A stretch of 54,790 nucleotides of DNA from Reclinomonas americana ATCC 50394 (GCA_048213135.1 PS015109.1:140327-195116), one strand, 5' to 3'. Counted from the stretch's first letter, positions 2,157-54,790 are shown. Program-made: numbers and translations. Notes: generated from the sequence alone by a model not told the origin.

Positions 2157-5100
2157 TCACATGATGACGTCGGTGAAATCAGGCAAGAAGGAGCCGAGAA
2201 TGCGCTCGAGCAGTCCTTCACGACGGCGCACAAGTGGTGTACCCATCTTATGCGGAACAGGAGGCTGTTCATCGGGCGTCACTGCCACTGCAGACGCTCC
2301 CCGCTCATGGCCTTCCAGTCGGCGCACCTCTCTGCCACTCGCCAGTGACCACAGCCGTACAGTCTTGTCCCCACTGCCACTCACAATGTGCTGGCCATTG
2401 GGTGTCACTGCCACAGCCCGTACCAAACTGGTGTGGCCTTCCAGTCGGCGCACCTCCTCGCCACTTGCCACCGACCACACTCGTACAGTCTTGTCCTCAC
2501 AGCCACTCACAACGTGTTGGCCATCCTTTGTCACTGCCACTGCAGACACCGATTTCGTGTGACCCTCGAGTAGGCGCACCTCCCCGCCACTTGCCACTGA
2601 CCACACTCGCACAGACTTGTCCCAACTGCCACTCACAACGTACTGGCCATCGGGTGTCACTGCCACTGCATACACTTCACTCGTGTGACCTTCCAGTCGA
2701 CGCACCTCCTCGCCACTTGCCACCGACCACACCCGTACAGTCTCGTCTGCACTGCCACTCACAATGTGCTGACCATCGGGTGTCACTGCCACTGCATACA
2801 CCTCACTCGTGTGGCCTTCCAGTTGGCGCACCTGCTCGCCACTTGCCAGCGACCACACCCGTACAGTCCTGTCCACACTGCCACTCACAACGTGCAGACC
2901 ATCGGCGGTCACTGCCACTGCCATCACCCACTCCGAGTGACCTTCCAGTCGACGCACCTCCTCGCCACTTGCCACCGACCACACCCGAACAGTCTTGTCC
3001 TCACTGCCACTCACAATGTGTTGGCCATCGGGTGTCACTGCCAACGCGCACACCACATCCGTGTGGCCTTCCAATCGGCGCACCTGCTCGCCACTTGCCA
3101 CCGACCACACCCGTATAGTCTTGTCCACACTGCCACTCACGATGTGCTGGCCGTCGGGTGTCGCGGCCACTGCAAGCACCTTACCCGCGTGCCCTTCCAG
3201 TCGGCGCACCTCCTCGCCACTTGCCACTGACCACAGCCGTACCGTCTCGTCCTCACTGCCACTCACAATGTGTTGACCATCGGGTGTCACTGCCACAGCT
3301 ATAACCTCATCGATGTGGCCTTCAAGTCGGCGCACCTCCTCGCCACTGGCCACCGACCACACCCGTACGGTCTTGTCTTCGCTGCCACTCATAATGTGCT
3401 GGCCATCGGGTGTCACTGCCACTGCCCGCACGTCTCTCGTGTGGCCTTCCAGTCGGCGCACCTCCTCGCCACTTGCCAGTGACCACACCCGTACAGTCCA
3501 GTCCCAACTGCCACTCACAATGTGCTGCCCATCGGGTGTCACTGCCACTGCAGACACAAAGTTCGTGTGGCCTTCCAGTCGGTGCACCTCCTCGCCACTT
3601 GCCAGTGACCACACTCGAACAGTATTGTCCATGCTGCCACTCACGATGTGCTGGCCATCGGGTGTCACTGCCACTGTAGACACCTCGTCCGTGTGACCTT
3701 CCAGTCGGCGCACCTCCTCGCCACTTGCCACCGACCACACCCGTATAGTCTTGTCCACGCTGCCACTCACAATGTGCTGCCCATCCGGTGTCACTGCCAC
3801 TGCACGCACCCCATCCGTGTGGCCTTCCAGTCGGCGCACCTCCTCGCCACTTGCCAGCGACCACACCCGTAAGGTCGCGTCCTTACTGCCACTCACAATG
3901 TGATGGCCATCAGGTGTCACTGCTACTGCAGATACCCCGCCCTTGTGGCCTTTCAGTCGTCGCCCTTCCCCGCCATTTGTCAGTGACCACACTCGAACAG
4001 TTTTGTCCCAACTGCCACTCACAATGTGCTTCCCGTCAGGGGTGACGGCCACGGAGAACACAATGCCGGTATGACCCACCATCGGCTTTCTAGGCCAGGT
4101 CACGCCCGTCACATCTGCCCCTCTGAAATCCGCCTCCCTCCCGAAGGCCTGGCACAGATTTACACCTCGCAAATCCGCTCCACTCCACACCGTCCTGTGC
4201 ATCACCGCATCTCTCAAATCCGCACCTGGTGTTCGCACACCCGACAGATCTCGCCCACTGAACGAGACCTCGGCGAGACACAGTGCACTTGCCGCACTCG
4301 ACGACACGGCAGTGACTCTTTCCTCCGTGCGTGAAAGAGCAATCGCCTTCCACAGTACGTCATGGAGAGACTGATCAGCCTGCACTTGCTCGGCGACGAA
4401 CGACAGGATGGAATTAAGACCCTGCAGCCAGCGAAGAAGGGGTGAGCGCATGTCGCGAGAGTGAATGATGGAAAGGATGCACTCACTTCATCCGATGTGA
4501 GCAGTGTCCGCTGGCCACTGAAGCTGGCGCATAGTCTGTCGAGCCGATCCTGCACCGAGGTAGGTTGACAATCATGCAAGTGAGACAATCAGAGAAGCAC
4601 GACGATGCTCACCTCCAGCTCCACCTCCTCATTGGCTAACAATCGCACATCAGCCAGCCACGACTGAGCAGCAAAGTACTCTAGCACCGATTTGTGCATG
4701 AACTCCACACGCTGCTGCGATGCTCCAAGTCGACTCCACTTCAACAGCGCCTGTGTAGTATCTCGAATGAGAACGCAGGGAATGCATCGCTATGAGAGAG
4801 GAAACATTATGACGACGCAACAGCGCGAACAAGGGAGTTCTGCAGCGGATCATCACGATCAAACCATTTGTTCCACACATGTTGCTCTGCGACAGCTTGT
4901 TGAGTGTGCTGTGATGAATGAAGGAGAGTGAGCTACGAAACGCAGATGGAACAGGAATTGTAGCACACTTCTCGTGTTGAATGTACAGACCTCAAGCTTT
5001 CCCTGCCGCACAGATACCAAAGAGTGTTGCATCATCTCTCCAGCAAGCTCCGAGCAAAAGTCCCACACTCGGAGGCAAAAGTCCTCTTCCGATTCTTCGC

Positions 5101-8100
5101 CACCATACAACTGTGCAGAACGAACCTGTGAGCAGGCACGCATACCGCACTCTGATCAAGATCAACAATCAAAAGCGGACCTGACCAATGTGCACTTGGT
5201 GATGCTCAAACTCCCAGCGCAGTTTGTGTTTGGCAAACGCCTCGTACAACCGTGCACGAGTTACGCGCTTCATTGACGGTGCAGAGCCATCATTGCCACC
5301 GTTGCGAGGGTCCGCCCGCTCCAGGTCCTCCATCACAAGAACAATCATGTTCAACATCAGCGGCTGTTGTTGGACGGAGGTGAGGAGAGAGGAGAAGTGA
5401 GAACAGCAACCTCCTCCGGACTCACACATGAAACGCTGTTCTGCATTTTTTCTGTCTTTCAATAGTCATCCTCTCCAACATGTGCCATCACCGTGGCTCA
5501 CAGGACACCGCCTAACGCGCACTATCCTCCTACGCCTTTCTTCTTTCGTTCTCAGTGCGCTGACAAAGGCCACCACATTGTGTTCGACCTCTCCACTTCT
5601 GCATCGCATTATGGGCGCCAACACTCCACTGACGCAGGTTGTCACAACTAGCACACAGCACGCTCGCTCTCTCTCTCTCTTGTGCATCCGCACTGAATCC
5701 CTTCTCATTTCATGTTGTCGATGTGCAAATACACCAAACCACTTGGTGCACATTACTCTTCTGATACTGCACCCACGCCCTTCTTGTGTGACCTCTCTTC
5801 GCCGGAACTCCCGTCAAACTCTTCTCTCCGAATCGTGATCATCACAAAGCTAATGCAGGGCACCGCTTGGGCGACTATTATTCTTCCTCTTGTGCCTCTG
5901 GTGACCGGCACACCGTTCCCTTCTTGCATTGTCAATGTGACGCAGGACACCACTCTTCATCGGAACCTCTCATCTACTAAATTTTTGTCTCTCCGCTCTG
6001 TGTCATCATTGTGCAAGTGAAAGAAATCACTCTTTCCACTCTTCTCTCGCCCTCACGCTTCTACTTTGGCGCCGCAGATGGTGCTCACACGTTTTTCTCC
6101 GTCTGATAAATTTCTTCCTTTCTTGTTACTCTCGTTTGACACATTTCTCCCCACCTCAGCGTCCCATTCATCTCTTTCTATCTCCCACCACCATTGACTC
6201 ACCGACGATGCAAGTCCATCCAATCCAGGTGTACGCTGGATCTGCTGCTTGTACTGCTCACAAGAGCGCGGATGATCCAACCGCAACTCCACAAATCTAC
6301 TCGCACAAAGTGAATGTCGGCACCACGGCAATGGGGCGCTCAGTGGAATCTCACACGTAACTTTTGGAGGAAGAGATCAACGTCGTCCTTGGAGAACAAA
6401 CGCAGCATGCATCTCGCCAGCGTGCGCTCTGGTTGACGGAGGCGCTCGGCGCGCGACAGCTTCGGGTCCACAGGCACGAAGTGTCCCTCGGCCCAGAAGT
6501 TGCCGAGGCGACTGATGAACTCGCGCCGCACCGACACCACCAGCAGCACATTGGGCCAGCCCTGTACGTATACAGCAGAGTGGGTATTGCTCTCTTCATC
6601 GTGCGTCGCTTCACATAGAGTGGCAACGCAACGTCCAGTTCGTGGTTGACATACAAGTTGCCGGGTGCCTCGCCGCACTCGTCGTATCCGTCGAGCGCTA
6701 GCACGACGGTGCCGATGCGTCGGAGCTGCAGGGTACAGCTACAAGTGAGGCACGGTGGGGAGACAAAGTGAACAGTTTACAGGATTGGCGAAGGGGATGA
6801 GAGACCCACGTATACTGAGAGAAAGTGGGAGAACGACTGGAGACAAAAAAGAAAGAGGAAGAGTGGGAGCAAAAGCGAGACAAGGAGAAGAGTGGGAAAG
6901 GAGCACATAGAGAGAGTAGCGAAAACACTCAAGAGGAAAACAGAAAGAGAGATGAGAGAGAGCGAGACGGAGAATGGAGAGAGAAGACACAGATGAAGGG
7001 ATTGTGTGTGTGAGTGCAGAGCAAGAGCGAGACAAGGAGAATTGATGAGATCTCTAGCGAGGTGTGAGAAAGAAGTACAGTGACCGTGAAGAAAGATAGC
7101 CGTGAGGTGACCAGGAGAAAAGGCTGTGAAGAGAGCGAGAGCGGGATGAGGGACGAAAGAAGAAGACGGGGAAATCGATTATAATGAGACAATACAAATA
7201 GTGGGAGAGAGAGAGAGAGAGAGATAACCGCAGACGAACATTAAGACCCGATGCAGAAGCAAACTCAGCTCCAAACACATTATCATCCATGAAACAGAGA
7301 GATGAAGGCAGAGCTCGAGGTCACATGTGAGGGTGCACTTACCTCGTCCTCCGACACTTCCATCCTCGTGCCATCCAAAGCCTCGTTGGCCTCGCGCAGG
7401 AGGTAAGGCAGCAGCGCTCCTGGCTTGCGCAGCACTTCCTCGCGAGGAATGGCGGGAAGACGAGCCGACAACACCAACGTGTCGTCGCGCGCATGCAGGC
7501 GGGTCGTCAGCTGGCGCAGCAGCACGGACTTGCCACCGCCGGACCATCCCGCCACCACCAGCACCTGATGCAAGAAGATACAATGCGTAAAACAGTGCCG
7601 TCGCGAAGCACACGCGACTTGCGAGCAGGTCACAAGAGACAGGAGCTTGCAATAACGCAGCGCCGCAGCGAACGAGAATGCAAGCATTCAACTCACTCGC
7701 AAAGAGGGCGACGATGATGAAGAAGCAAGCTCGAAGATGGCATTGATGTCGATTAGAAGAGAGTATACGTGTGACTAAGTGAGCGTGCAATCGAGGAGAG
7801 TTGAACAAAGGCATGCGCGCGGCGAGGAAAGATCTAAAGAGCCGATGATACAGGAAGACATAGACAGGGGTGAACAGAGAGGAGCTAATCAATGCAAAAA
7901 TAGAGAGCAGGAGTAAGCAAGAGAGGAGTTTGAGAGAAGCAGGAGAAAGAGAAGCCGGCAGCGAACATATGTACAGAGAGAGGAGAGAGAAGGGGAGACG
8001 AAGAGAGGGCAGAGATGGAGGAGAGCGAAAAAGAGACAGCTTCAATTACAGCATCCACACACCTTGTCTGCCGGACTCTCACGGCTGACAAACTTGTCGA

Positions 8101-8551
8101 GCACATCGTCGGCCAGCTGCGCAGTGGCACGACCGCCCGCCGAGTCAGCCTCAGCTGTGGTCTGGTTGGCCCACAGCGGAACCTGGGAATGGCGAGTGCG
8201 TCAGTCGAGAGAACTTACGCACACCTCCTGCTCCCCAATTTCGACGAAACGAGGCACTCCATGGTGGAGAGGTTGCTCGGGTCGTTAGCCAGCGGGAGAA
8301 CGGCCTTCAAGGTGTTGGCCTCGTGGAGGGCGTGGATCTTTTGTTGGAGAGCCGAGATGGCTAGAGGTGCTGGTGCCGTTGTCGCCAATGGCGCTCCAGT
8401 TGGCGCCAATACGTACATGGAGGCCGACGGCGAAACGAGAGGAGATGGATGTCCCACGACGTCGGCGGCACGCGAGGCTCCACACCCGCCGCCGCAGAGG
8501 GCGAGGCGATGGGCACGAAGACGACGACGATGATGCGGCGAGTGAGTGATT
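2157..8551 (-). CDS. NLR-like STAND protein: NACHT NTPase + pentapeptide repeats + 14 WD40 repeats (spliced, about 1255 aa from ATG 8418; true start may lie further upstream)
   Basis: Manual GT-AG exon chain that stays in frame throughout: 8551(or ATG 8418)-8251, 8182-8063, 7564-7343, 6725-6633, 6561-6362, 6296-6203, 5363-5181, 5125-4991, 4908-4822, 4750-4613, 4549-4487, 4421-2157. Motifs: Walker A VLVVAGWSGGGKS, Walker B VVLALDGYDE, NLY..HELDGW..LLVVSVRREF, PLML, winged-helix FMHKSVLEYFAA, pentapeptide segment FSGRDLSGVRTPGADLRDA...ADLRGVNL...ADFRGADVTGV, then the WD40 array. Confidence 0.9.
2270..4085 (-). repeat. Tandem array of 126-bp WD40-coding repeats (14 complete + 1 partial)
   Basis: Unit LEGHxxxVxAVAVTPDGQHIVSGSxDxTVRVWSVASGEEVRR recurs every 42 aa with high nucleotide identity (e.g. 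ccttccagtcggcgcacctcctcgccacttgcca on +). Consistent with two 7-bladed propellers. Confidence 0.95.
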
Positions 8552-8814
8552 CTGGTGGGATGGAAGACGGAGAGAGAAAGAATACGGGAGAACGAGGTGA
8601 GGAAAAAAGGCGGGGATTCGAATTCCCCATGAGCTGAGGTATTCAGTTCCTTTTTTTGTGACAAGGAGTGCGAATAGTGTTACTGCAAGTGCACATTGCG
8701 GCGGCCCCAAAACCAACACGAAGGTTGTGCTCGAAGTGTCTTTCCTTTCTTTTTGATGAACGCCACAAAAGCAGAGGTTGACATCTTCGTTTCTCTACAA
8801 TCTCCCTCCCTTGA

Positions 8815-9150
<336 letters not shown>

Positions 9151-9209
9151 AGAGTGGGAGAGTGGGAGAGCGTGTGACAAGATGGTACACCCTTGTCACA
9201 CCGACGCAC

Positions 9210-9298
9210 CTGATACCCTGCAGTTGGGCAGTGGTGAACAGCCCACACTGCGAATCGTTGCTCGCCTCGTTCACCGCCTTCACCCCCTCCGTCTCCAT
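9210..9298 (-). CDS. Possible first exon of the NACHT-WD40 gene (METEGVKAVNEASNDSQCGLFTTAQLQGIR)
   Basis: ATG at 9298 and donor AG|GTGCGT at 9209. Phase 2 joins in frame to the acceptor at 8552 (ccag|A ATC ACT). No homology support. Confidence 0.3.

Positions 9299-10009: not shown

Positions 10010-10010
<1 letters not shown>

Positions 10011-10050
<40 letters not shown>
10011..10050. repeat. (AC)n microsatellite
   Basis: 20 AC units. Confidence 0.95.
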
Positions 10051-10052
<2 letters not shown>

Positions 10053-10256: not shown

Positions 10257-11305
10257 CTACACCACATTGATCACCTTCACCACCGTTGCCGCCGTCGCCG
10301 TCGACAACAAATCTCGGAAGTTCCAACCTGCGCGGTACATGAAACCTCGCCTTGAGTAACCACACACCTCCTCGGCCACCGACTGGCGACAAAAAGAAAC
10401 ATCACCCTCACTCACCAAGGAATGCAAAGAACGCAATCTTCAGGGGCTCGTTGACCAGAATGTCTGCGACAACAACATGAAGCAACAAGAGGTCAGCAGT
10501 GTTCCGAATACAAAAGTCGCTCATGTCACCGTCGCACCTTGGGCCTGCAGTCACAGCGAGACACACTCATTTAGATTCAAGACAAACTCATTGTTGACAA
10601 GACAGGCTGTCACTCACCACTGGTGATTTGCAACGAGAAGCAGACATCGATCGTCATTCGATAGTACATGGAGAAAAGAAGAGAGTGAGGCAACAGCCAA
10701 TTGCGACACTTGTTGACACACATGCTTATCGTCTCACTCTCGCAACCCAAAGGCACAAACAATTTCATGTTTCTCCGCTATTTCTCTCTCCTCTTGCTCC
10801 TCTCCCTTCTTCAACCACTCTTCCCTTCACATATCTCTCTACATGTCTGTCTCCTCTCTCTCTCTCGCTCTGTCATATTGCTTCTTTCTTTCTGCATGCG
10901 CCCCTCTCCCTCCGCTTCTGTCACTCTCTCCCCTCCCTTTGCCTCTCCTCCCCTCCGCCCTCCTCTCCTTCACGCACCACTGTCACACACACAAACAACT
11001 CGTCAGCAAAAACATCGAGAAAAGAAAAGAGCAACAACACTTCCACACGCACCTTATTCCACATGCCGACGCAATGAGACCTCCATTGCCCGCCGCCTCC
11101 AAGTCCTTCATCACTCTGTACGACGCAAACACCTGTGAGTATCTCCAAAAGGCGCACGATACTCGCAACCACAACTCACCTCGACGCCGTGATAAGAGTC
11201 ATGATAATGAGGAAGGCTCCGGCGAGCCTGCAAGAAATTGACAAACTTATCAGTTCAGCTGTGTTAACTTTACTGGTATTGTAGCCCTCCCATCTTCTCC
11301 TTTTC

Positions 11306-11337
<32 letters not shown>

Positions 11338-38300: not shown

Positions 38301-41300
38301 GTCCAGCAAGGGTTGACACGTAGCCAGATGACCATCGCCGAATCTTATTGTTTCCGTTCTGCGAAGACACCAACAAAGTCGATAAGCACGCACTAGTCTC
38401 GCTACATAACCCCCACCGCCCACGCACATCGACGATAAAGAACTCCGCCGAGGCATCACACAGTTCAATGTCGATAGGACTGCAAAACGAGAAGCAAATC
38501 ATTAAGGAGAAGAAAGACGCTGACCGACAAGCACGAATCGCAACCAACGCAACGTATTCAGCGTGGCCACAGAAACGGGACCGTCAACACTACCAGCGGT
38601 GTATGGCTTCCCGACCACCGTTGTCGTGTCACCGGCGGTGGAGATCTTGCGCACGGTATGCGTGCTACATACATGCACCGAGACGTGAGAAGAGCTCAAT
38701 ATCATGAAACACGGCAAGGACACGAAGCGCAACATCGAGTCTCCAACGTAGGCGTTTCCAAGAAAGTCAACTGCAACACCCTGCACAATCCCATCGTCGA
38801 AGGAAAACACACTCATATCAGCAAATAAAGTACAATCCCGCACCAACGCGCGTAATGAACAACTGCGGCACACCGTCGGCGACTCAAACTGTGCAGAAGC
38901 ACCAGAGCCATCGACATTGCCGCCCGATGAACCCGCCAGCGATACAACAGTCGCAGGTCGGTCGAATGCGCCGGTAACTTGCGCCAACTCGAAGGCCACT
39001 GCCAGATCTAGAGGACCACCTTCGTGAACATTCACCAAGCCGTTCAAGGTGGCCGATGTGGACGACAAATTGGTGGCTGGTTGTGCAGCTATCGAGGGCG
39101 CTGTATCGACGAAATGTAGAGTGAGTTCAAACAAGACACGCAATCATACTGAAGATTAGAAGAATCCAACAAACGTACCGAGCGTCGTGAATGATAAAAG
39201 GTTTCCACGCCCAGACGAGATTGTGTCTATCAAGCGGAAAAAGTACGACGACTGGGGCAGTAGTGCTGCAAGGGAGAGAGACACTGCAGTGCTCGTCGTT
39301 CCTGTGACCGAACTCGGGGACGCCACAAGCGTACTTGGCGGCAATGAGACGCGTCGCACACATTCGCCTTGTGGCCCTGCCGACACGGATGTCGTTGGTT
39401 CGAGTAAATGAACATGCAAACACAGTGAACGCAAGTACACACCGGCGACAAGCAGACTCCAGCTCGTGGGGTCAAAGGCCACACCAGCCTGTTGACGCGC
39501 AATCGAATGAGCGAAGATGAGAAGATGCCACAAGAAGCATGTCGGCGAACGCCACTCGCGTCAAGGGAAAGATGCGCACGAGACACGACGTTGAATGCCG
39601 GAGTGAGAGAAGCCCGCAATCACAGAGAGCATAAAGGAAGAACATCCCAGCGAGCATGTGCTGCATCCCCCCGTCGTGTACCACATACCGGTTGGTTGAA
39701 TCGAGACGCCGATCCGATGCCGTCCACGGTGCTCGCTAATCCGCAAGCACCAGCAATGGTCGTCACAGCGAGAACACTAGTGATGCTGCGTATAATATCA
39801 TTCGAAGTCTGCAAGCACAAAGTGACCACATTACAAAAATGCTGATCACACTGCAAATGTTGAACGAAGAAAAAAACGTGCAAACAAGGGCGCAACATCG
39901 GCAACATATATAGTGCTCGTCACCGCATCAACCGACACCGACTGTGGGGACATAAACCGAGCGGCTGTGGCCGTTCCATCCAGGCACCCACTGGTCCCAG
40001 ACAACCCGGCATATGTGGTAACGGTCATCCCAGCGAGCGCAATCCTCCGAATGGAATGATTCCCCTGATCGGCAACATACAGGAAACCGCGACCAACATC
40101 CAATGCCAGTCCGGTCGGATTGTTGAAGGAGGCAGCCAATCCCTGCGCGTCAACAGTGCCGGCGCTGCCGGACATTCCCGACACAGTGGTCACTGAGCCG
40201 CTGTACGTTACACGGCTACAAACAAAAAGAAGCAGACAAATAACGGTGAGCGACTTCCGCAATGTACTCGCAGTAGCAAAACTTTGCTTCTGCAGTCTCA
40301 CCGAATCGTGTGATTGCCCGAGTCGCTGACGTACATAAACGCGGAGTTTGTGTCGACCGCAATGCCGGAAGGTTGGTTGAACAGGGCGGAACTCCCCGGA
40401 CCGTCAACACTGCCAGCAGTGGAACCAGCCAGTGTGGAGACGTAACCGGAGGAGATCTTGCGGATCGCATGGTTCAGGGTCTACAACAAGCAAAGTGTCA
40501 GCAATGGAGACGAGGACAACAGTTGACTAACAGGAGGCCACCCACCGACGCGACGTACAGGTCGCCGTTCACCAAGTCACATCCAACATCAGAGGGGCTA
40601 AGAAGCGAGATGAGTAGTGAATGCCGTAAATGATACGCGCAGGGGAACGAAACGAGTTGAAAGTGGCTACAGAGATCGGGCCGTTAACGAATCCGCTGGT
40701 CCCAGCCAGACCCGCCACAGTGCTCACGACGCCTGCTGCGGTGACCTTGCGGATGGTGTGCGATCTGGAAAAAACGAGAGATACATGAGCAAAAGAGTAT
40801 GAAGCAGAAAAAGGAGATTGACGAAAGCGCACCCTTTCTCGGCAACAAAAGCAGTGCCAGAAACATCAATGCACATGCGCTGTGCGAGACAACAGGATCG
40901 TGAGATAGACCCGCGCATCACAGCAATTGATCCAAGAACCGATGAATGCAACGCACAGCCAATGCCGAGAACCGAACAGCCGTGCCGACGCCGTCTACGG
41001 TGCCACTGGCACCAGTGGCGCCGGCCAGTGTAGAGACAGTCGCCGGCGCACCAAACAAGCTTACCGAACGCGCCACCTCGAATACAGTGTTGGTCGTCGC
41101 CCCAGTGGCATTTGGGTTCACCTGTCCACGAAGAGTCGCAGTACTCGCGGTAGCGTCAGTGACAGCCGATGTTGTCACCAGAGGCACTGAGAACACGAGG
41201 CACTGCACGTCAAGCAAAGATCACAGGCGCAACGCACGTGCATATTATGCGACGAACCGACAGGCGTCTGGAACGCACGCACTCCACTCCGCTGCAGTGT

Positions 41301-44300
41301 CACACTGTCCACAAATCGGAAAAAGTACGTGACCGACGGCATCAGATTCGTCAGCGACAAGGACACGTTGACTGCCATGGTTCCCGTCGCCGTCGCCGGT
41401 GATCCCGTGATCGACGCAGGTGGAACAACAATTTTACGAATCGTGTTGTTTCCCGTGTCTGTGCACACACGCATGAAGGGAAACGCACACAAATCCAAAA
41501 GAACGTGAGTTGAGATACCAGAGAGTGCAAAGACTTCTCTCTCTCGCACACGCACCTGCAACAAACAACCCGCCGCGGAATCGATCAACAACAACCCCTT
41601 GCTGCGCAAGCATCCAATACAAAATGAGACTTCTTCACACGAGAAAGAATAGACACGCTAAGCACACACACGCACACGCTAAGCACACACACACACACAA
41701 ACATACAAACACAGAGAGAGAGAGAGGGAAAGTAGCGCGCACACTCACCGGGATGTTGAACCGAGCAATCACCGCAAGTNNNNNNNNNNNNNNNNNNNNN
41801 NNNNNNNNNNNNNNNNNNNNNNNNNNNNNNNNNNNNNNNNNNNNNNNNNNNNNNNNNNNNNNNNCCATCCGCCGACCCACTGCTCCCCGCAACACCAGCA
41901 ATCGTCGTCACCGCACCTGCCGCACTCACTTGTCGAATGTGTTGTCCCTGCACAACCAACAGCAAGCGACAGGAGGGGAATAAAAGCACAGTGGGTGAGT
42001 GAATAACAGCAGTCCGCAGTTCAGATTTTCGCCGACACACACACGCAACATCGGCAACATAAATCACATTCGCCACCGGATCCACACCGACACCAAACGG
42101 TCGATTGAAATGCGCACTCACTCCCGTGCCATCACTCGTACCCGTAACACCAAGCTCGCCCGCCAGAGCCGTCACAGTCGACGTCGCAAGCACAATCTTG
42201 CGCACCGCAAAGTTGCTCGAATCCGCCACATACAGCGCACCACGCCCATCCAGCGCCACATCGGTCGGGAAATTGAACCTCGCTGCAGACCCGACTCCAT
42301 CAATCAGTCCAGCCGTCCCGAGTGTACCAGCTACAGTTGTCGCGATGCCACTGAATGACACACGTCTGTGCGCACACACGGGTTGGGTGAGTCATCTTAC
42401 TCCATGATGCAACAAGGCATGCAAGACAATGCAACTCACCGCACACTGTGATTCTGATACTCGGCAACATACATGCACTCAGCTGCGCTGTCCACCGCCA
42501 GACCGCGCGGTCCATTGAACCGTACGGCGCTACCAATACCATTCACAGCGCCCGCACTGCCGTTGCCAGCCACAGTCGACACTGTGCTGCCAGACACTTT
42601 GCGAAGCACATGATTCGAGTCCTGCACATCACACACATACAGACGCCAGCTTAGACCATGGCCACCACGCACTACTTTTTCTCTCCTTCTCTCATAGCAC
42701 ACATGCATGTCATGGAACACGTGGACATCACCTCCACCGCATTATTTCTCTCTCTCTCTCTTCCATTCATCCTCACGTATCAACGCACCTCGCTGAAGTA
42801 CAGATCGCCCGTTGCCAGATTGATGTCGATGCCGTATGGACTGCAAGACGACGAAAAGACCCAAATGAGACGACGTGCGCACAAGCACACCACAACCAGC
42901 ATCGGCTCAACTCAGCTCGAGCAACGCAACTTATTCAGCAAGGCCGATGACACCGCACCGTCAGTGTATCCAGAAGTACCAGCCTGTCCGACGAGCGTGC
43001 TTACCGCACCCGCCGTATTGATTTTGCGAATCGTGTGTCCGCCGCTGCACAACAAGAAAGAGAGAAAGACAATGAGTAACAGTGAAACGATGCACCGAAT
43101 GCAAACGGCAACGCGGTTGTGGAGGTACACGCAACGTTGCCACATACACGTTGAACGATGCATCGATGCACAGATTCTGTCGCAGTAAAACACATGTGAG
43201 CAGAGTCGATAACAATCGCATCCACACCACAAACAAACACAGGAGACATCAAACCGTCGGCGACACGAATCTCGCCGCACCACCCGCGCCATCCGTGTTT
43301 CCACTCATGCCAGCTGTGCCAGCCAAAGTCGACACACTCAATGCAGATCCGAAGGCGTCTTGCGAGAATGAAAGCTCAAACACATTGCTGGTGGTGACAC
43401 CGACGTCATTTGGGTTCACAGTGGCGGGGAGCGTGGCCGTGGTGGACAGAATGCTTGTCGCCGCTGCCGAGGTGACGGTCGGCGCTGTGGTTGAAAACGT
43501 GAGGCAGGCAGTTGAGGTTGTCACAAAGAAAAATACAGAATGACAGACACACCTTGCAGAGTGGCAAACTGCTGCACCGCACCGTGCTGACCAGTGACGC
43601 TGTCTATGGCTCGATAATAGTATGTGATAGACGGCCGCAACCACGCGACATTGGCCGTAATGCTGTTGGTGCTGCTACCTGAGGAGCTGGCCGGACTCGC
43701 TGCGATGACAGAAGGCGGCAGCGATACTCGACGCACAAGTTGGTTGCCAAAGTCTGTGAACCTCAAGGGCGTGAGACTCGAGCAAACACACAGAAATGGA
43801 AGCCGTTATCAACCGGAAAGAAGAAAAGCGAGGAGACATCATCATCATGACATGGTTCTGGCACCAACATCTCCCTCTCTCCACACTTTCGACGCGAGGT
43901 TTCTAACCTGCCAAAACCAGTCCGCCATTAACAAAGTCAATCGCCATGCCATACTGCATNNNNNNNNNNNNNNNNNNNNNNNNNNNNNNNNNNNNNNNNN
44001 NNNNNNNNNNNNNNNNNNNNNNNNNNNNNNNNNNNNNNNNNNNNNNNNNNNNNNNNNNNNNNNNNNNNNNNNNNNNNNNNNNNNNNNNNNNNNNNNNNNN
44101 NNNNNNNNNNNNNNNNNNNNNNNNNNNNNNNNNNNNNNNNNNNNNNNNNNNNNNNNNNNNNNNNNNNNNNNNNNNNNNNNNNNNNNNNNNNNNNNNNNNN
44201 NNNNNNNNNNNNNNNNNNNNNNNNNNNNNNNNNNNNNNNNNNNNNNNNNNNNNNNNNNNNNNNNNNNNNNNNNNNNNNNNNNNNNNNNNNNNNNNNNNNN

Positions 44301-47300
44301 NNNNNNNNNNNNNNNNNNNNNNNNNNNNNNNNNNNNNNNNNNNNNNNNNNNNNNNNNNNNNNNNNNNNNNNNNNNNNNNNNNNNNNNNNNNNNNNNNNNN
44401 NNNNNNNNNNNNNNNNNNNNNNNNNNNNNNNNNNNNNNNNNNNNNNNNNNNNNNNNNNNNNNNNNNNCCACAACAAATTCAGCAGCATGCACAAGCAATC
44501 CAAAACAAGGCATACAAGGCACAAACCGGGTGATTCAGCGTGGCCACCGACGATGATCCATCAGTAGATCCCGCCACACTGACTAACCCAATCAGAGTCG
44601 AGACTGCGCCACTCGAGATGGAGATTTGTCGCACGGTGTAATTGTTAATCTGCAAAAAAAGGCAAAAGGTTAAGTCCGATCATCAACAACTTGAAAAATA
44701 CAAACTGCTCAAGGAAACCCAACGTCGGTGACATAGAGCACGCCGAGTACAGGATCGAGAGCCAGTCCAGATGGTCCACTAAAGCGGGCCGCAGATGCCG
44801 TGCCGTCAGCGACACCGGCAGACGACCCAGCAACACCGGCCAGCGTCGACACTGCCAGAGTAGCCAGATCGACACGACGAATGGCGTTGTTTTCGTAATC
44901 TGCAACAAAGAGCACTCCGCCGGTAGTGTCGAGGGCAACGCCTATCGGGGCACGGAAACGGGCAGCACTGCCAACGCCATCAGCACTGCCAGCGTTGCCG
45001 GCGGAGCCCACGAGAGTTGTAACAACGCCAATCGACGAAACGCGACTGTAACACGGCTATCAGCTTGCAAGAGAGGAAAACAAGGAGAGTACATGTCCAC
45101 AAAAAAGAACGGTACATGAACTTGGAATATCTGTGATGCACTGAAGCACGCACAACGCACACTCGTATTCCCTCGTGTCGACAGAATAAGAGACCAGCAC
45201 ACTCACCGAATGCACTGGTTTAAATACTCAGGCACATACACGGCCCCTGACACTGACGACACTGCCAGGCCAGCAGGGCTGTGGAACGATGCAGACGCAC
45301 CAGTGCCGTCCGCGCTGCCGGCGACGCCTGAGCCGGCGAGAGTCGACACGATACCAGATGAAATCACTCGAATTGTGTTGTTGCCGTCCTGTGCAGCATT
45401 AAGTGAATGCAATGCCCGCGGATAATATAATACTCCTTGTTGCACAAACCTCAGAGACAAACACGGTACCAGAAGAGTCAATGGCAATTCCACGAGGCCT
45501 GGTGCACAAGAATACATGAGGTGCAATGATACAAGGAGCAATGAGGTCTACCGAGCTCAAAGAAACGAACTTTGAGAACAATGCGACCGATGTGGAGCCG
45601 TTCACCAACCCAGACATCCCAGCTTGTCCAGCAATCGTGCTGACCACGCCCGCATAGGCGACTCGGCGAATCATGTGATTGCTTGAGAGAGAGAGAGAGA
45701 GTCAGCAACACAAACGCGATAGGAGTCAAGCAGAACGTGCGCACTTATAGTCTGTGACGAGCATGTCGCCATTCACATCCTGAGCAACGCCCTATGCGGA
45801 GAAAGAGAATAAAATGAGACGATGCTTGGAAACGAAAACGACACTCAAAAAGAATAACCCAAAGGTCGTTGAATCGTGCAGATGATCCAGTGCCGTCTGC
45901 AGAACCACCCATTCCGGCACTGCCAGCCACAGTTGTAACAGTGATTTGACTGCCGAATGCCAACATGCTGACCGCCAACTCAAATGTGTTGCCTGTGGAC
46001 GGTGCGCCCTGCGCATTGACCTGACCCGCCAGTGTCACCGACGACGATAGCACGTTGCTTGCCGCCATTGTCGTTACCGTCGGTGCTGGAAGGATAGAAT
46101 GTGTAAGGATATAATACTACGAAGCGCAGGTGCACAATGCATAGAGAAACCCGACACATATTCACAGCGAGAAGAAATAGATTCACAAATCAGCGCACCT
46201 GGAGATGTTTGGAACGCACGCACTCCACTCCGTTGCAGCGTCACACTGTCCACAAATCGGAAAAAGTACGTGACCGACGGCATCAGATTCGTCAGCGACA
46301 AGGACACGTTGACTGCCATGGTTCCCGTCGCCGTCGCCGGTGATCCCGTGATCGACGCAGGTGAAACAACAATTTTACGAATCGTGTTGTTTCCCGTGTC
46401 TGTGCACACACGCAAGAAGGGAAGCACACACAAATCCAAAAAACGTGAGATGAGATACCAGAGGGTGCTGAGACTTCTCTCTCATAAGCACACGCACCTG
46501 CAACAAACAATCCGCCGCGGAATCGATCAACAACAACCCCTTGCTGCACAATCATCAAAAGCAATGAGCCGTCTGCAACACGAGAAAGAATAGACACGCT
46601 AAGNNNNNNNNNNNNNNNNNNNNNNNNNNNNNNNNNNNNNNNNNNNNNNNNNNNNNNNNNNNNNNNNNNNNNNNNNNNNNNNNNNNNNNNNNNNNNNNNN
46701 NNNNNNNNNNNNNNNNNNNNNNNNNNNNNNNNNNNNNNNNNNNNNNNNNNNNNNNNNNNNNNNNNNNNNNNNNNNNNNNNNNNNNAACACACAAACACAC
46801 AGAGAGAGAGGGAGAAAGAGAGAGAGTAGTGCGCACACTCACCGGGATGTTGAACCGAGCAATCACCGCAAGTCCATCCGCCGACCCACTGCTCCCCGCA
46901 ACACCTGCAATAGTCGTCACCGCACCTGCCGCACTCACTTGTCGAATGTGTTGTCCCTGCACAACCAACAGCAAGCGACAGGAGGGGAATAAAAGCACAG
47001 TGGGTGAGTGAAGAACAGCAGTCCGCAGTTCAGATTTTCGCAGACACACACACGCAACATCGGCAACATAAATCACATTCGCCACCGGATCCACACCGAC
47101 ACCAAACGGTCGATTGAAATGCGCACTCACTCCCGTGCCATCACTCGTACCCGTAACACCAAGCTCGCCCGCCAGAGTCGTCACAGTCGACGTCGCAAGC
47201 ACAATCTTGCGCACCGCAAAGTTGCTCGAATCCGCCACATACAGCGCACCACGCCCATCCAGCGCCACATCGGTCGGGAAATTGAACCTCGCTGCAGACC

Positions 47301-50300
47301 CGACTCCATCAATCAGTCCAGCCGTCCCGAGTGTACCAGCTACAGTTGTCGCGATGCCGCTGAATGACACACGTCTGTGCGCACACACGGGTTGGGTGAG
47401 TCATCTTACTCCATGATGCAACAAGGCATGCAAGACAATGCAACTCACCGCACACTGTGATTCTGATACTCGGCAACATACACGCACTCAGCTGCGCTGT
47501 CCACCGCCAGACCGCGCGGTCCATTGAACCGTACGGCGCTACCAATACCATTCACAGCGCCCGCACTGCCATTGCCAGCCACAGTCGACACTGTGCTGCC
47601 AGACACGTTGCGAAGTACATGATTCGAATCCTGCATACCAAACGCACGCACAAGCCACTTTAGACATTGCCATCACGCGCGCTCTTTCTCTCTCTCTCCT
47701 TCTCTTACACCACACACACGCGCATGTCACAGAACACGTGGACATCAACGCAGCGACATCACTTCTCTCTCTCTCTCTCTATCTCTCTCTCCCTCCTCTC
47801 TCTCTCTCACTCTCTCTCTCTCCTTCACCCTTCATCATATGTCCACACACCTCGCTAAAGTACAGATCGCCTGTTGCCAGATTGATGTCGATGCCGTATG
47901 GACTGCAAGACAAAGAAAAGACCCAAATGAGACGACTTGCAGCCAAGCACACAACCACCAGCTCAGCTCAGCACAGCCCCAGCATAGCGCAACTTATTCA
48001 GCAAGGCCGACGACACTGCACCGTCAGTATATCCAGAAGTACCAGCCTGTCCGACAAGCGTGCTCACCGCACCCGACGAATTGATCTTGCGAATCGTGTG
48101 CCCACCGCTGCATAACAGCAGAGAGAGAGAGAGAAAGACGATGAGTAACAGTGAATCGATGCACAGAATGCAAATGACAACGCAGTTGTACACGAAACGT
48201 TGCCACATACACGTTGAACGATGCATCAATGCACAGATTCTGTCGCGGAAAGACACGTGTGAGGAGTCGGTAACAATCGCATCCACACCACAAGAAAATA
48301 CGGGAGACATCAAACCGTCGGTGACACGAATCGCGCCGCACCACCCGTGCCGTCCGTGCTTCCACTCATGCCCGCCGTGCCAGCCACAGTCGACACACTC
48401 ACAGACAACCCGAAGGCGTCTTGCGTGAATGCAAGCTCAAACACATTGTTGGTGGTGACACCAGCACCGTTCGGGTTCACAGTAGCGGGGAGCGTGGCGG
48501 TGGTGGATAGAATGTTTGTCGCCGATGCCGAGGTGACGGTCGGCGCTGCGGAAAAAGGAACACCGGGGTATGAGTGAAACCAAATCCCTGGTGGCAGAAT
48601 CCGCGAGCTGGCTATTACCTTGAACGGTGAACGAGAGAATCGAGCCCCGAATAGAGGTCGACGAATCGACAGCTCTGTAGTAGTACGTGGCACCACTGAC
48701 AAGCGGGGTAACAGTAGCGCTGACGCTTGTATCCGTCGTTCCAGTTGCACTGGAGGGCGAGCCTGTAATCGACGACGGTGGCAGGCTGAGACGGCGAATG
48801 ACGTGGTTATTGGAATCTGCGGGTACAGAATCGCGATGAATCACAAGCACAGAACACAAGCCAGCATAGACCGACGACAACCCACCTGCAATAAGGAGTC
48901 CATTGGCTCGCACGTCAAACGCCAAGCCTTGCTGCATCGTCAAGGAGATGAGATTTGGCAGAGTGTTAGCGACACTTGCAAGTCGACACGATCGAGCACA
49001 GCAACGAAACTGGCGAGTAGAACAACGGATTGGTTCCCTGTGTAAGACCATGGGTTCCGGCAGTTCCCGCAATGGAACTCACTGATCCGGTCGACGGCAC
49101 AATGCGGCGGATTGTGTGACTCGCAGACTACATGAGGAGACACAACAAGATCAGCACCCAAGCACATGCAACATCCAACACAGGCACATCCTCGACCCGC
49201 CACGAAACATCCGCCACATACAGCACTGAAGCCACCAAATCAACTGCTATTCCGACAGGAGTGCTGAACGACGCTCCTGCGCCAACTCCATCGCTGCTCC
49301 CACTATTGCCGTTTGAAAGGCCAGCGACCGTTGTAACAGCCAGCGTCGACAAGTTGACCTGGCGAATGGCGTTGTTGCCACCGTCCGACACATACAACAC
49401 GCCTCGCCGGTGATCTAGAGCCACTCCAGACGGTGATCTCAGTCGCGCAGCCGCACCAATGCCGTTGACGAATCCAGGCTGACCAGCAAGACCGACCAGC
49501 GATGTGAGAGTGCCACCAAAGGACACTCGGCTGTGTACAAGGATTGAACACGCAGAAAGCCGGCAGCACAAACAAGCATACATACAGCAGGGTCATCAGC
49601 CAACACTAGCCACGTTTGAGACTTGAACAACGACATGACGACATACGCACACGACAACATGGTTTGACGAGGCTGCGACAAATATGCACTCGCTATTGAC
49701 ATCCACGGCCGTGCCACATGGTTGCGACAATCTTGCTGCGGTACCGACACCTTCGGCGAATCCCGACATTCCGTTGCCGACCAAGGTGGTGAGCGTTGCG
49801 CCGGTAAGCTCGCGCACTACGTGATTGGAGCTCTGGATACGCCGACATGATACGAGAAGCAAGGAGTGGTAAAATGAGGAAAAAGGATGCAGCACACATT
49901 GACATGAGGGTGGGTGCGTTTTGTTCTCACCTCACTAATGTACACAGAGCCTGTCTGAGAATTGACGTCGAGTCCGCATGGTCTGCAAGGCAGAAGTGCG
50001 TAAGACGATCGGCACTTCGAAAGGAACGTATCAAAGTGTGGCGCACGTGTTCATGAGCGACGACAATGCTGGACCGGAAGTGTAGCCACTCATGTTTGAC
50101 TGCCCGGCAATGGTTGTCACCTGACCGGCTGCGGAAATGCTGCGAACTGTATGTGCTCTGCATTGTTTCAAGAGAACGCATCAGAGATGAAGGCAGAGGG
50201 AGCAATGTCGCACTGACAATGATGAGGAGACACGAAACAAGCTATTGGCGGCGTACGTGACGCCAGCCGTGTCCGTACACACGCCCTGTCGACAGCAGAA

Positions 50301-53300
50301 TCAACCTTCAGCGCCGGAACGCTCACAACGAGAACACAGCAATCGACGCACATAAGGGCTGTAAAATGTGGCAGCGGTTCCGAGACCATCAACGGAACCA
50401 CCTGGTGCGCCAAATTGACCGGCGAATGTGGACGCAGAAACCGGAGCTCCAAACGCCGCCATTGTGGTGCTCACTTCGAACACGTTACCAGTGGTATTAT
50501 CCGGATCGCCAGCGTTAACTGTTGAGTTTACAGTCGCTGACACCGACGACAGGCTGGACACCGCATTGGTTGTCACCGTAGACGCTAAAAAGATGTTTAG
50601 CGTGTATCAGAAATCAGGCCAAGTGAGAGAAATCTCTCGCGAAAGAAATGTAAATACCTGCCAGCGTTGCAAATGACTGCGTCAGGCCACGGACAGCAGA
50701 GACCGTGTCGGTCACCCTGTAATAGTATGTGGTTGCAGGCAGCAGCTGCAACACCGTGGCTGTAATAGCGGCGTTGGTGTTGCCGGTAACCGGTGATGGC
50801 GCGCCAGGAACGGAGAACGTGCCGAGTGCAATACGGCGGATTGTGAAGTTCGTGACCTCTGTGGAGACAAAATTATGTACGTGCACAGCGCGATGCAAAG
50901 AGTGGAAAACTACCGCATACCAGACACGACAAGATACCGGTTCGACGAATTCAAGGCAAGCCCGACCTGCACATGGTGGCGACACGCAATGAAAATGGGT
51001 ACAACAGCGCGTGCTGAACACGTTTCGAAACAGACGTACCGGCCCGTTGAGGCGCGCATTGCTTCCCAGCCCGTTTGCATACGCGCCAGCACCCGCAGAG
51101 CCCATCACAGTCGTCACTTGTCCAGCAGCAGTGACTTGCCGTATGGTGTGATTGGCAGTCTGTAATGCATACGCAAGTGAACCCAAGAGGAAGCATGACT
51201 GCAGTGCGCCTCCGCATGTATGTGTGTGCCAACTCGCGAATCACGGACGCAACGTCGGAAACGTACAGTAGATTGGCCAGCACATCGACCACCACCGACT
51301 GCGGCGCACTAAACGAGGCCGCCGACCCGAGACCGTCGTTACTGCCAGGCGTTCCAGCAACGCCGGCGATGGTAGTCAACGTGGTCGTTGACAAAACGAG
51401 CTTGCGCAGCACATGGCTGCCACTGTCGACATGATAGAGGATCGCACGACCAGAATCGAGAGCGAGACCCGCCGGCAGATTCAGTCGGGCAGAGCTACCC
51501 ACACCGTCCTGAATGCCTTGCACGCCAAACGATCCCACCAAGACGGCAGTCAATCCAGAGTAGAATACGCGACTGTTGGCGCCACAAGTAAGCAAATAAC
51601 TGGACAAATGCGGGAGACAAACAAGAGAAGGAAAAGAGGGATTGTAATGCAGAGTGAAAGAGAGAAAGAGAGAGACTTCTACTCTCCCACATGATACGCA
51701 CCGAATGACGCGATTAGTAGAATCCGACACATACATGACTTGTGCGACTGCGTCCACGGCAATGGCGACGGGCGACGCGAATTTCGCCGCAGTACCAATA
51801 CCATCCACAGTGCCACTCGTGCCACCCACAAAAGTCGACACGGTGCCTCCCGACACTTTGCGAATGGCGACATTCAACACCTGTGTCACAGAATTCTATC
51901 AGCACCGCACATCACTGAAAAGGGACACTCGTCGCCCACGAACATCGCAAACATACAGCGCGCCAGTTTGCACATCACAGCCAACATCAGAAGGGCTACA
52001 TGAGTGACAGGAGGGAGATGAGTGGCAATGCATTTCAAATATATAACCTACTTGAGACAACAGACCTGTTGAAAGTTGCAGTTGTCGATGACCCGTCGGT
52101 GAATCCGGTAGTACCGGCGATACCAGCCACCGTGCTCACCACTCCCGACTCCGTAACCCTTCGAATCACATGGGCACTGTGTCGTGTGCGCGAAATTAGC
52201 AAAAAAACGGAGAGAGAATTAGAAAACTCGGTGGTGACTCATGCAACGCCGACCTCTTGTCAGCCAACACAGCTGCGCCTGTCGACTCGATGCACATGCG
52301 CTGGAAGGGAGGAGNNNNNNNNNNNNNNNNNNNNNNNNNNNNNNNNNNNNNNNNNNNNNNNNNNNNNNNNNNNNNNNNNNNNNNNNNNNNNNNNNNNNNN
52401 NNNNNNNNNNNNNNNNNNNNNNNNNNNNNNNNNNNNNNNNNNNNNNNNNNNNNNNNNNNNNNNNNNNNNNNNNNNNNNNNNNNNNNNNNNNNNNNNNNNN
52501 NNNNNNNNNNNNNNNNNNNNNNNNNNNNNNNNNNNNNNNNNNNNNNNNNNNNNNNNNNNNNNNNNNNNNNNNNNNNNNNNNNNNNNNNNNNNNNNNNNNN
52601 NNNNNNNNNNNNNNNNNNNNNNNNNNNNNNNNNNNNNNNNNNNNNNNNNNNNNNNNNNNNNNNNNNNNNNNNNNNNNNNNNNNNNNNNNNNNNNNNNNNN
52701 NNNNNNNNNNNNNNNNNNNNNNNNNNNNNNNNNNNNNNNNNNNNNNNNNNNNNNNNNNNNNNNNNNNNNNNNNNNNNNNNNNNNNNNNNNNNNNNNNNNN
52801 NNNNAGAGAGAGAGAGAGACGATCGGTAATGGATAAGGAACAAAACATGCAGCGAACAATAAAATGATCAAAACGACACACCTGCGGGGCAGTGAACGTG
52901 GCAGCCGATCCAGTGCCGTCCGCGTTGCCAGAAACTCCCAGAGAGCCAGCCAGCAAGGAGGCCGATATGGCGGAATCGAATTGCGACAACGAGGTGCCGA
53001 CATCGAACGAACCCTGAACACCTGCGCCATTCTTGGCATTCACCAACGCCAGTAGAATGACCGAGGATTGAGTCACCGAAATCGACACGCCAGTGGTGAC
53101 AACAGGAGCTGTTCAGTACGACAGAGGCACCAATGTCAACGATTCTTTTCAGCAGCGCAAACGGGAGTAGCACAATTGTACCTTGCAGTGTGGTGAGCGA
53201 CTGCACAGCACCGTGCTGACCAGTGATGCTATCAATGGCTCGGTAGTAGTACGTGGTTGACGGCCGCAACCACGAGACATTGGCTGTGATGTTGATGGTG

Positions 53301-54701
53301 CTGGTACCAGTAGAGCTGGCTGGACTCGCTGCGACGAGTGAAGGCGGCAGCGATATCCGACGAACGAGGTGGTTTCCCTTTTCTGCAATCCGCAAACGCA
53401 TGAATGAGAAGTCATGGGTGAACAACAAATGCGAAACTAATCTAAAGAGAGACACAGAAAGAGAGGCAGGTAAGCAGGTATCAGATTTGCAGCCGACGTG
53501 CACAACCAGTATCTATCCACTTTTCTTGGTAAAAGTCACCAAACCTGCAATAACCAGTCCGCCATTGATAAAATCAAGTGCCACGCCATACTGTATAACA
53601 ACGGGTGAGCGGCACGAACGCAACAATACATGCAAGTCCACGAACCGGGTTAAACATTGTGGCCACTGACGTTGAGCCGTCTGCAGAGCCGGTCACGCTG
53701 GCCAAACCGACAAGAGTCGAAACTGCGCCACTCGAGACGGACACTTGTCGCACGGTGCAACTGGTCAGCTGCAAAGGCCATGCGATGCAGTCAATACGGT
53801 AGTAATCCCCAAAGCACAGCAAATGTCGACGGCCACGCAACATCGGTCACATACAGCACGCCGACAATTGGATCGAGAGCCAGTCCTGTTGGTCCATTGA
53901 AGCGAGCATCTGAGGCCGCCCCATCAGCCACGCCAGCCGCCGACCCCGCAACACCTGCCAGTGTCGACACTGCCAGCGACGCCAGGTCGACACGTCGGAT
54001 GGCGTTGTTGACGGAATCTGCAATGAACAGCGCGGAGCCAGATGCGTCGAGGGTGATTCCCAACGGCGAGTTGAAGCGCGCAGCAACGCCAACGCCATCA
54101 GCGGTGCCAGCAGTGCCAGCGGAACCGACAAGAGCAATCACCACGCCAGTTGATGAAATGCGACTGGGAGCGCAAACAATCAGCACAGGGGAGAAGGGGG
54201 AGTGGAGAGAGGGAGAGAGAAAGGAGAAGAAGAAGAAACAAAAGAAGGAGGAGGAAGAAGAAGTGGAAGAAGAAGATGATGAAGAAGAAGAGAAGAAGAA
54301 GAAGAAGAAATGAAGAAGAAGAAAATGAAAAAGAAGATGAAGAAGAAGAGAAGGAGAAGAGAAGGAGAAGAGAAGGAGAAGAGAAGGAGAAGAGAAGGAG
54401 AAGAGAAGGAGAAGAGAAGGAGAAGAGAAGAAAAAGAAAGAACGAAAAGAAGAAGAACAAGAACAAGAAGAACAAAAACAACAAAAAGAACAAGAACAAG
54501 AACGAGAACAACAAGAAGAACAAGAAGAAGAACAAGAACAAGAACAAGAACAAGAAGAAGGAGAAAAAGAGAAGAAGGAGAAGAAGACGGAGATGACTGA
54601 CTACCGACAAAGATGAAACGATAACAATAACAAATCACATGTATGGCATCGGAAGGACACCTAAGCAGCAGGCACGCAGAGACGAGAACACGCGCGCGCC
54701 G

Positions 54702-54751
<50 letters not shown>

Positions 54752-54790: not shown

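Follow-up and report, generated by a model that had tools for sequence, protein, structure and literature searches.

Introduction

Human 5' splice sites at which U1 small nuclear RNA (snRNA) pairs in a register shifted by +1 were reportedly described by Roca and Krainer in 2009. At such sites the consensus lies one base further into the intron, with +6G/+7U in place of +5G/+6U, U1 sits one position downstream, and the cut is still made before the GU. Shifted-register donors of this kind are the subject of two studies (PMC4856993, PMC11162779), and all validated non-canonical registers together make up about 1.5% of human donors and are read by canonical U1 (PMC4856993). Here we examine a stretch of 54,790 nucleotides from Reclinomonas americana ATCC 50394 (GCA_048213135.1 PS015109.1:140327-195116; hereafter the window, numbered from its first letter), for which an original prediction, made from the sequence alone, held that exons ending in a base other than G are mostly followed by a GTTNCG donor, with G at +6 instead of +5. 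The geometry is that of the human sites, but such donors constitute 24% of predicted GT introns in this organism, depend on the -1 base, carry C at +5 and have a matching U1 paralogue.

Altered U1 5' arms have also been found to co-evolve with atypical donors in Entamoeba (AACAAAC) and Mastigamoeba balamuthi (ACGUAC; 10.1101/2022.06.08.495308), the latter showing the same U5-to-G change as the variant U1 described below. In both, however, a single altered U1 is reported, which serves a species-wide consensus in the normal register, whereas in R. americana canonical and variant U1 occur together, each fits its own donor class, and the variant does so in the +1 register by virtue of C8A. Several U1 5' ends within one genome, as found here, are on record for Physarum polycephalum, said to have a standard U1 plus an ACAUAC U1 (10.1101/2022.06.08.495308), for the diplonemid S. 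specki, whose alternative U1 has a C-rich arm and whose two U1s fit the canonical logo comparably (PMC12621601), and for the human variant U1s (PMC10870369), yet in the available text of these sources none of them is linked to an abundant donor class of its own with a shifted register.

In animals and plants, AG//GUNNN and NN//GURAG donor classes are distinguished, in which either of G-1 and +5G can make up for the other; the two classes are explained by U5 versus U6 pairing with one U1 (PMC11732430). As in that split, donor type in R. americana depends on the exon-terminal G, and a missing G-1 is compensated inside the intron; unlike it, G-1 and +5G go together here (83% vs 20%), and the compensation takes the form of a different, shifted motif. 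The minor spliceosome likewise serves a second class of donors, for which it has a separate 5'-recognition snRNA, U11, but the class described here differs in its U2-type branch points, its abundance, and its interconversion with the ordinary class at one and the same intron position. The literature searched contained no report of this donor class or of this U1, with thin coverage of subscription papers and supplements; further U1 variants might be listed in the supplement to the Entamoeba preprint.

Two donor classes and their dependence on the last exonic base

With a slash marking the exon-intron junction, donors with G at +5, typically G/GTNNG, are referred to as class I, and GTTNCG donors, of the H/GTTGCGT type (GTTKCGY), as class II. 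The two classes, both with ordinary U2-type branch points, depend on the -1 base, and this donor code amounts to a strong bias that admits exceptions. In the first line of evidence, 11 dynein heavy-chain and 3 RNA-polymerase second-subunit loci of the assembly (G000) were compared with homologue profiles by a self-written spliced protein-to-genome aligner, whose sole demand was GT/GC-AG or AT-AC ends. The best database matches reached 76-77% for dynein and 62-66% for RPB2 and were, by database weight, mostly from animals. From 273 introns tested, 115 donors were kept (margin of at least 3 bits, well-aligned flanks), and removal of one assembly-gap artefact left 114. After G (n=97), 87 of these donors had +5G, 2 were GTTNCG and 8 were of other types, while after non-G (n=17) there were 12 GTTNCG donors, all of them GTTKCGT, and 5 with +5G. 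The original prediction placed cleavage before the GT, and the homology agrees: when 17 class II junctions, taken at a looser margin, were slid by one base, 9 gave the same residue, and in all 8 informative cases the GT-AG junction gave the better-conserved one. The dynein paralogues were uninformative about switching between classes, since all 6 shared positions had G at -1.

On a larger scale, a donor-neutral gene-finding hidden Markov model (HMM), in which all GTs are scored alike, was run on 25 pieces comprising 1,425,430 non-N bases of the 108-Mb assembly. It returned 3,483 introns at a posterior of at least 0.5; a threshold of 0.9 left 1,883 unique introns for analysis (1,873 GT, 10 GC). 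In 70 of 71 confident cases its donor agreed with the one placed by homology, an agreement that is partly circular, as those exons were in the training set. GTTNCG begins 410 of the 672 predicted introns after non-G but 37 of the 1,201 after G (p 8e-182), and the split is repeated outside the window (401/651 vs 37/1,165). The prediction would have been contradicted by a +6G no more frequent after non-G than after G; the predicted introns carry +6G in 467/672 and 168/1,201 cases, respectively, and +5G in 137/672 and 993/1,201. Its description of a major intron class is also borne out, with 447 of 1,873 GT introns (24%) spread over all 25 pieces, while "mostly" has to be read as about 60-70% of non-G ends. 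The proposed motif is present but narrower than GTTNCG, with G (84%), T (12%) or A (2%) at +4 and T (81%) or C (13%) at +7; class II is strict at +4/+7, class I loose at +3/+4. Counts of 8-mers, which need no gene model, point the same way: GTTGCGT after A, C or T occurs 704 times against 257 expected, and after G 65 times against 48.

Apart from the donor, introns of the two classes are alike. Branch motifs of the CTCAC/CTGAC/CTAAC type are found in 343/447 class II (76.7%) and 852/1,130 class I introns (75.4%), the median branch-to-acceptor distance is 19 and 20 nt, intron length 69 and 68 nt, and acceptors do not differ (410/447 class II introns end in CAG). The U12-type branch site CCTTRAY occurs in just 3 of 447 class II introns, and instead of RTATCCTT, the donor that would pair to U11 (which starts AAAAAGG), these introns have GTTKCGY. 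Phases are distributed 161/166/120 in class II and 569/359/202 in class I. The commonest class I hexamer is GTGCGT, in which the +5G exceptions after non-G are also rich, and the class II motif is the same hexamer plus one T. Haplotig pairs show differences at 6/210 sites within positions +3 to +7 of class II, compared with 7.3% for the interior of introns (p 0.005), and the -1 base differs in none of 143 class I introns and in one (a G/A pair) of 42 class II introns. Around the class there are near-class II donors (GTTGCAT, GTTGGGT, GTTGAGT; e.g. at 52247 and 44723 in the window), with 16 cases after non-G, and in one haplotig pair GTTGCGT in one copy stands opposite GTTGAGT in the other; these suggest a fringe of weaker class members.

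Homologous positions are also available within the window, in the large modular gene described below, where 92 donors were manually sorted into nine homologous module positions; one mis-set entry (39168) was removed. Class II occurs in 0/53 G-ended and 23/38 non-G-ended copies, which are partly non-independent, as the prediction had cautioned: the pairs 48198/43135, 47993/42930 and 47058/42049 are recent module duplicates. Positions B, C, D and G contain both classes, e.g. CCG/GTNNG and CCA/GTTTCGT, and at position G all 9 G-ended copies are class I. Class membership is thus a switchable state that follows the -1 base at homologous positions. Class II introns were also considered as introners, a possibility we rejected: their bodies are mutually unrelated and enter fewer BLAST pairs (16/429) than those of class I (33/424).

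A variant U1 snRNA and its fit to class II donors

Outside the window, the assembly contains, besides a canonical U1 with arm ACUUACCUG, a variant U1 with arm AUACGUAACUU, which differs from it by U5G, C8A and G11U. Both arms are 11 nt long before helix H, which rules out an insertion in the variant. The variant matches the covariance model RF00003 over model positions 1-166 (E 4e-14, 64.0 bits, short of the gathering cut-off), and its fold is complete, with an 11-nt single-stranded arm, helix H, three stem-loops (loop 1 GAUCAAGCAG, loop 2 AAUGCAC), a U-rich Sm site and a UUCG-capped stem-loop 4 shared with the canonical gene. CCCACAA lies 66-72 nt upstream of variant U1 (at -66), U11, U6 and U6atac (background 4.5e-5 per base) and also upstream of U5, and the 3' box GAA..CGAAG is common to variant U1, canonical U1, U11 and U12; the region upstream of canonical U1 is an assembly gap. 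The two copies of the variant, probably haplotigs, have 0 differences over 298 nt, compared with 16 substitutions and 5 indels in 525 nt upstream (about 4%), which suggests purifying selection. Searches for relatives of the variant in metagenomes gave 8 pattern matches, 0 of them a U1 by Rfam, and a search for a U1-C paralogue gave one sub-threshold match with a stop, an uninformative outcome for an intron-split domain of 38 amino acids.

The variant arm is complementary to AA/GUUACGUAU or GUUACGU in the +1 register. With donors of the H/GTTGCGT type the pairs in this register are C9-G+1, A8-U+2, A7-U+3, U6.G+4, G5-C+5, C4-G+6 and A3-U+7, along with U10-A-1; C8A repairs the central mismatch that canonical U1 has in the shifted register. 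The donor AA/GTTACGT at 6361 in the window is a full complement of the arm from -2 to +7 (duplex energy -12.6 kcal/mol with variant and -1.6 with canonical U1). Over all class II donors the median energy is -8.9 kcal/mol with the variant and -1.4 with canonical U1, decoy GTs giving -1.9, and the variant is better by more than 1 kcal/mol on 442/447 class II donors and on 1/993 class I donors after G, 671 of which are better matched by the canonical arm. The base at +5 is C in 362/392 class II-like donors as against 250/589 at class I +4, the corresponding position (p 3e-63). Were canonical U1 simply reading a shifted site, A at +5 or a copy of the class I +4 profile would be expected; C points instead to the variant's G5. 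A is enriched at -1 (176, vs 99 at -10). On the +5G exceptions after non-G the variant pairs slightly better than canonical U1 (-4.3 vs -2.8 kcal/mol), and it may serve some of these as well.

We therefore favour, with a probability of about 0.75, a reading based on complementarity in which the variant U1 would recognise the H/GTTGCGT class in the +1 register and canonical U1 the G/GTNNG class. Under this proposal the intron's G+1 would take the C9 pair usually supplied by the exon's G-1, so that class II donors need no exonic G, which would account for the -1 dependence. When an exon end loses its G, insertion of one T (GTGCGT to GTTGCGT) would hand the intron over to the other U1. The later steps are the least sure: cleavage would remain before the GT, and the single U6 type would pair the C and A of its ACAGA with G+6/U+7 with one base bulged, or would tolerate the loss of pairing.

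Several observations speak against this proposal or limit its reach. The optimal partner of arm base U6 would be A at +4, but that position has A in 2% and G in 84% of cases (class I likewise prefers G at +3, which matches class II +4); positions +8/+9 of the predicted class II introns carry no trace of the A/U that the arm predicts; and T is enriched at -1 too (144 vs 83), an excess with no counterpart in the arm. The code is also broken in both directions, by 137 of 672 non-G ends with +5G donors and by 37 class II donors after G. Both U1s fall under the Rfam gathering cut-off of 69.5 bits (variant 64.0, canonical 63.7; E near 4e-14 for both), the expression of both genes is presumed from their sequence, and the junctions are predictions derived from reading frame and homology. 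Furthermore, where U1 bound did not determine the cleavage site in a human case (PMC11162779), so that more than U1 may be needed to account for G+6/T+7; for one human donor a shifted U6 register has been proposed (PMC11162779).

Other readings of class II

Canonical U1 could itself read class II, in a +1-shifted or +2/+3-bulge register aided by protein, with the variant as a bystander or late fine-tuner. Such registers of canonical U1 have been demonstrated in human cells (PMC4856993), human variant U1s are mostly poorly expressed and few affect splicing (PMC10870369), canonical U1 still makes a mean of 4.9 Watson-Crick pairs in the +1 register, and the derivation of the motif from GTGCGT by one T would suit this reading too. 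We nevertheless consider it unlikely: by computed duplex energy canonical U1 pairs with class II donors no better than with decoys, A at +5, which would aid it, is present in 19/392 of them against 145/589 at the matching class I position, all three variant substitutions suit the +1 register, and the variant gene is conserved between copies and carries snRNA flanking motifs. An artefact of duplicated modules, introners or mis-set junctions is the least probable explanation of all. Some module introns are indeed recent duplicates, and the junctions are predicted by a gene finder partly trained on its validation genes, but the split recurs outside the window, in homology-placed dynein and RNA-polymerase genes and in the 8-mer counts, and class II intron bodies are unrelated to one another.

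Two further readings involve the minor spliceosome. In one, which we regard as improbable, the variant U1 would pass class II introns, with their U2-type branch points, to an altered U6atac, forming a third, hybrid major/minor pathway. Through G15 and C14 the U6atac box ACCGAGA would pair C+5 and G+6 in the normal register, the same two bases mismatching C+6 of the sole plausible ATATCCTT minor intron, and among the best candidates scored a single U6 type and a single U6atac type were found. The box, however, would call for G at +7, which 2% of class II donors have, and for U at +8, which shows no enrichment; branch points of the class are U2-type, with the U12-type motif in 3/447, and a change in the U12 candidate complementary to the altered U6atac makes the two look like partners. 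The other, very improbable and already largely refuted, sees class II as transformed U12-type introns in which the variant U1 replaces U11. Minor snRNAs are present in the genome, and C at +5 is common to class II and U12-type donors, but the class II branch motif, its distance, the acceptor and the length are class I-like, a near-canonical U11 exists separately, and classes switch with the -1 base at homologous positions. The flatter phases of class II, which might be taken in favour of such an origin, follow from which codon positions can be non-G.

The genes of the window and their introns

The window holds two intron-rich genes, both on the minus strand (Table 1), and all 11 donor coordinates taken from the prediction are GTs on that strand with the -1 base and hexamer as given. 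Splicing of the first gene at its 11 predicted donors yields a single open reading frame (ORF) of 1,198 amino acids, whose Pfam matches are weak for P-loop/AAA/NACHT and strong for WD40 repeats; the pentapeptide-like stretch was recognised by eye. The ORF upholds the predicted pattern in this gene, with +5G at 6/6 donors after G-ended exons and GTTNCG at 4/5 non-G ends, and donors 8250, 6361 and 4486 have no alternative in-frame GT within 30 nt. The gene model's donor 4941 was dropped in favour of 4990; the acceptor belonging to 4990 is preceded by a CTCAC branch at the distance typical of these introns. The last exon (2157-4421) lacks introns and contains about 14 near-identical WD40 repeats, which suggests recent expansion or homogenisation.

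The second gene, polycystin-1-like as judged by its domain content, probably extends on to about 10,300 (unphased). Over 10300-54163 it shows some ten NHL-repeat modules, in each of which nine intron positions recur, followed by Cys-rich, REJ and GPS segments, and the intron at 21544 splits the GPS motif (flanking exons at Pfam GPS positions 2-21 and 31-44). A donor-informed model, with training introns all from outside the window, predicts 144 minus-strand introns in the window. Its 35 GTTNCG introns all follow non-G, 0 of 83 introns after G are GTTNCG, and 26 other introns follow non-G; one of the 35 was rejected (4941), and 6361 was missed. Both exceptions that had been pointed out, at 4486 and 21396, are real. 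By direct count, the gene strand has 41 copies of GTTNCGT and the opposite strand 7; on the gene strand the motif follows A, C or T in 39 cases (15 expected under an order-3 Markov model) and G in 2 (3.5 expected). Most window introns are 60-85 nt long, with long introns at 11000-19800, 23700-24270 and 26470-27317 that carry strand-biased GA-rich low-complexity sequence.

Table 1. Genes, introns and U1 loci considered in this study. Positions are those of the window unless a locus of assembly G000 is named.
Feature	Position	Strand	Remarks
NACHT/P-loop - pentapeptide-like - WD40 gene	2157..8262	-	11 introns, 1,198 aa; spliced ORF unbroken
Class II intron C/GTTTCGT	8183..8250	-	NACHT gene; phase 0, 68 nt; donor-neutral posterior 1.00
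Class II intron C/GTTGCGT	6562..6632	-	NACHT gene; phase 0, 71 nt; donor-neutral posterior 0.99
Class II intron A/GTTACGT	6297..6361	-	NACHT gene; 65 nt; required by the ORF; missed by the gene model
Class II intron T/GTTGCGT	4751..4821	-	NACHT gene; phase 0, 71 nt; donor-neutral posterior 0.54
Exception A/GTGAGT (+5G after non-G)	4422..4486	-	NACHT gene ORF and gene model
Six class I donors G/GTNNG, NACHT gene	4550..8062: 8062, 7342, 6202, 5180, 4990, 4612	-	Spliced ORF
Large multi-module receptor-like gene	20031..54163	-	Gene model; Pfam NHL, REJ, GPS; bears most window introns
Class II intron T/GTTGCGT	53769..53841	-	Module position F, after Asp codon
Class II intron CCA/GTTTCGT	48932..49010	-	Module position G; likewise at 31738-31813
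Class II intron C/GTTGCGT	43045..43135	-	Module position B
Class II intron A/GTTGCGT	42841..42930	-	Module position C
Class II intron C/GTTGCGC	21480..21544	-	Inside GPS motif; model posterior 0.58
Exception T/GTGCGT (+5G after non-G)	20874..21396	-	Gene model
Class II intron C/GTTTCGT	20777..20836	-	Gene model
Other class II donors, large gene, all after non-G	21754..51253: 51253, 50238, 49208, 48198, 47993, 47058, 42049, 40653, 39896, 38733, 38553, 37686, 36704, 35787, 34550, 34430, 33854, 31999, 31813, 31298, 27421, 26047, 25060, 22237, 21818	-	Donor-informed model
Variant U1	L001:1501-1654, L002:1501-1654		Outside window; two near-identical loci of G000; Rfam RF00003 match below cut-off
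Canonical U1	L003 (G000)		Arm of ACUUACCUG type; Rfam RF00003 match below cut-off

Other spliceosomal RNAs and the assembly

The prediction had left the choice between a +1-shifted U1 and a variant U1 or U6, and had suggested inspecting the U1 5' ends and the ACAGA boxes of U6. The shifted geometry and a variant U1 5' end beside the canonical one were found; U6 has a normal ACAGAGA box, and its three identical copies are of one type. No variant U6 was found by a covariance search that scored 48 of 4,277 candidates, by BLAST or by a core-motif pattern, whose six matches are the three U6, two U6atac and a locus (L223) rejected as a U6, as it looks like bacterial coding sequence; these snRNA searches score the best candidates only, and further copies may be missed. 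The U5 candidate scores 34.4 bits (cut-off 40) and has a normal loop 1, and the separate U11 gene, near-canonical, scores 51 bits. The U12 candidate (L043:1501-1654, L044) is divergent and below cut-off at 26.5 bits, but keeps the branch-pairing motif GAGUAAGG, an Sm site and the snRNA 3' box, and we read the alignments as showing a 5' arm that could pair with the altered U6atac (G9 opposite C25). U6atac (L039:1501-1632, L040:1501-1630; G000:C392, C1225) is of one type and above cut-off at 37.8 bits, with CC in its ACCGAGA box in place of the AG of the Rfam consensus. The upstream motif CCCACAA is shared by RNA polymerase II-type and U6-type snRNA genes (L001, L045, L005, L039, L088) and resembles the plant upstream sequence element.

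The box ACCGAGA would mismatch C+6/U+7 of RTATCCTT minor introns, despite the near-canonical U11. An 81-nt sequence of the form ATATCCTT...TCCTTGAC...AC on the minus strand of contig C5 (G000, piece L121-L140), whose removal gives an open frame, is a plausible AT-AC minor intron; a second ATATCCTT candidate was discarded, having no plausible frame. Many genes occur in near-identical pairs, and bacterial contigs are present, such as one of over 2 Mb with an intron-free rpoB (G000:C2:2031249-2032784) and apparently that of L223, so the assembly appears to consist of two haplotypes plus bacteria.

Significance

The best reading of these data is a shifted register of the human type, which in humans is a rare exception, hard-wired here by a dedicated U1 paralogue. 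If this is true, R. americana would be a natural example of a genome that uses two U1 snRNAs, in different registers, on thousands of ordinary introns, with the variant arm as a natural analogue of engineered suppressor U1s. Gene finders built on a single donor model would put about one in four of the organism's introns in the wrong place. The system makes several matters testable, namely the dedicated substrates of variant U1s, the acceptance by U6 of +6G/+7U for +5G/+6U, and the buffering of exon-end mutations. Should the hybrid pathway with the altered U6atac be the true one instead, introns would enter a hybrid spliceosome via a one-base insertion when the exon loses its terminal G. With the variant U1 as reader, a new intron class could arise from the duplication of a single snRNA, a route that bears on the possible origin of the separate donor code of the minor spliceosome.

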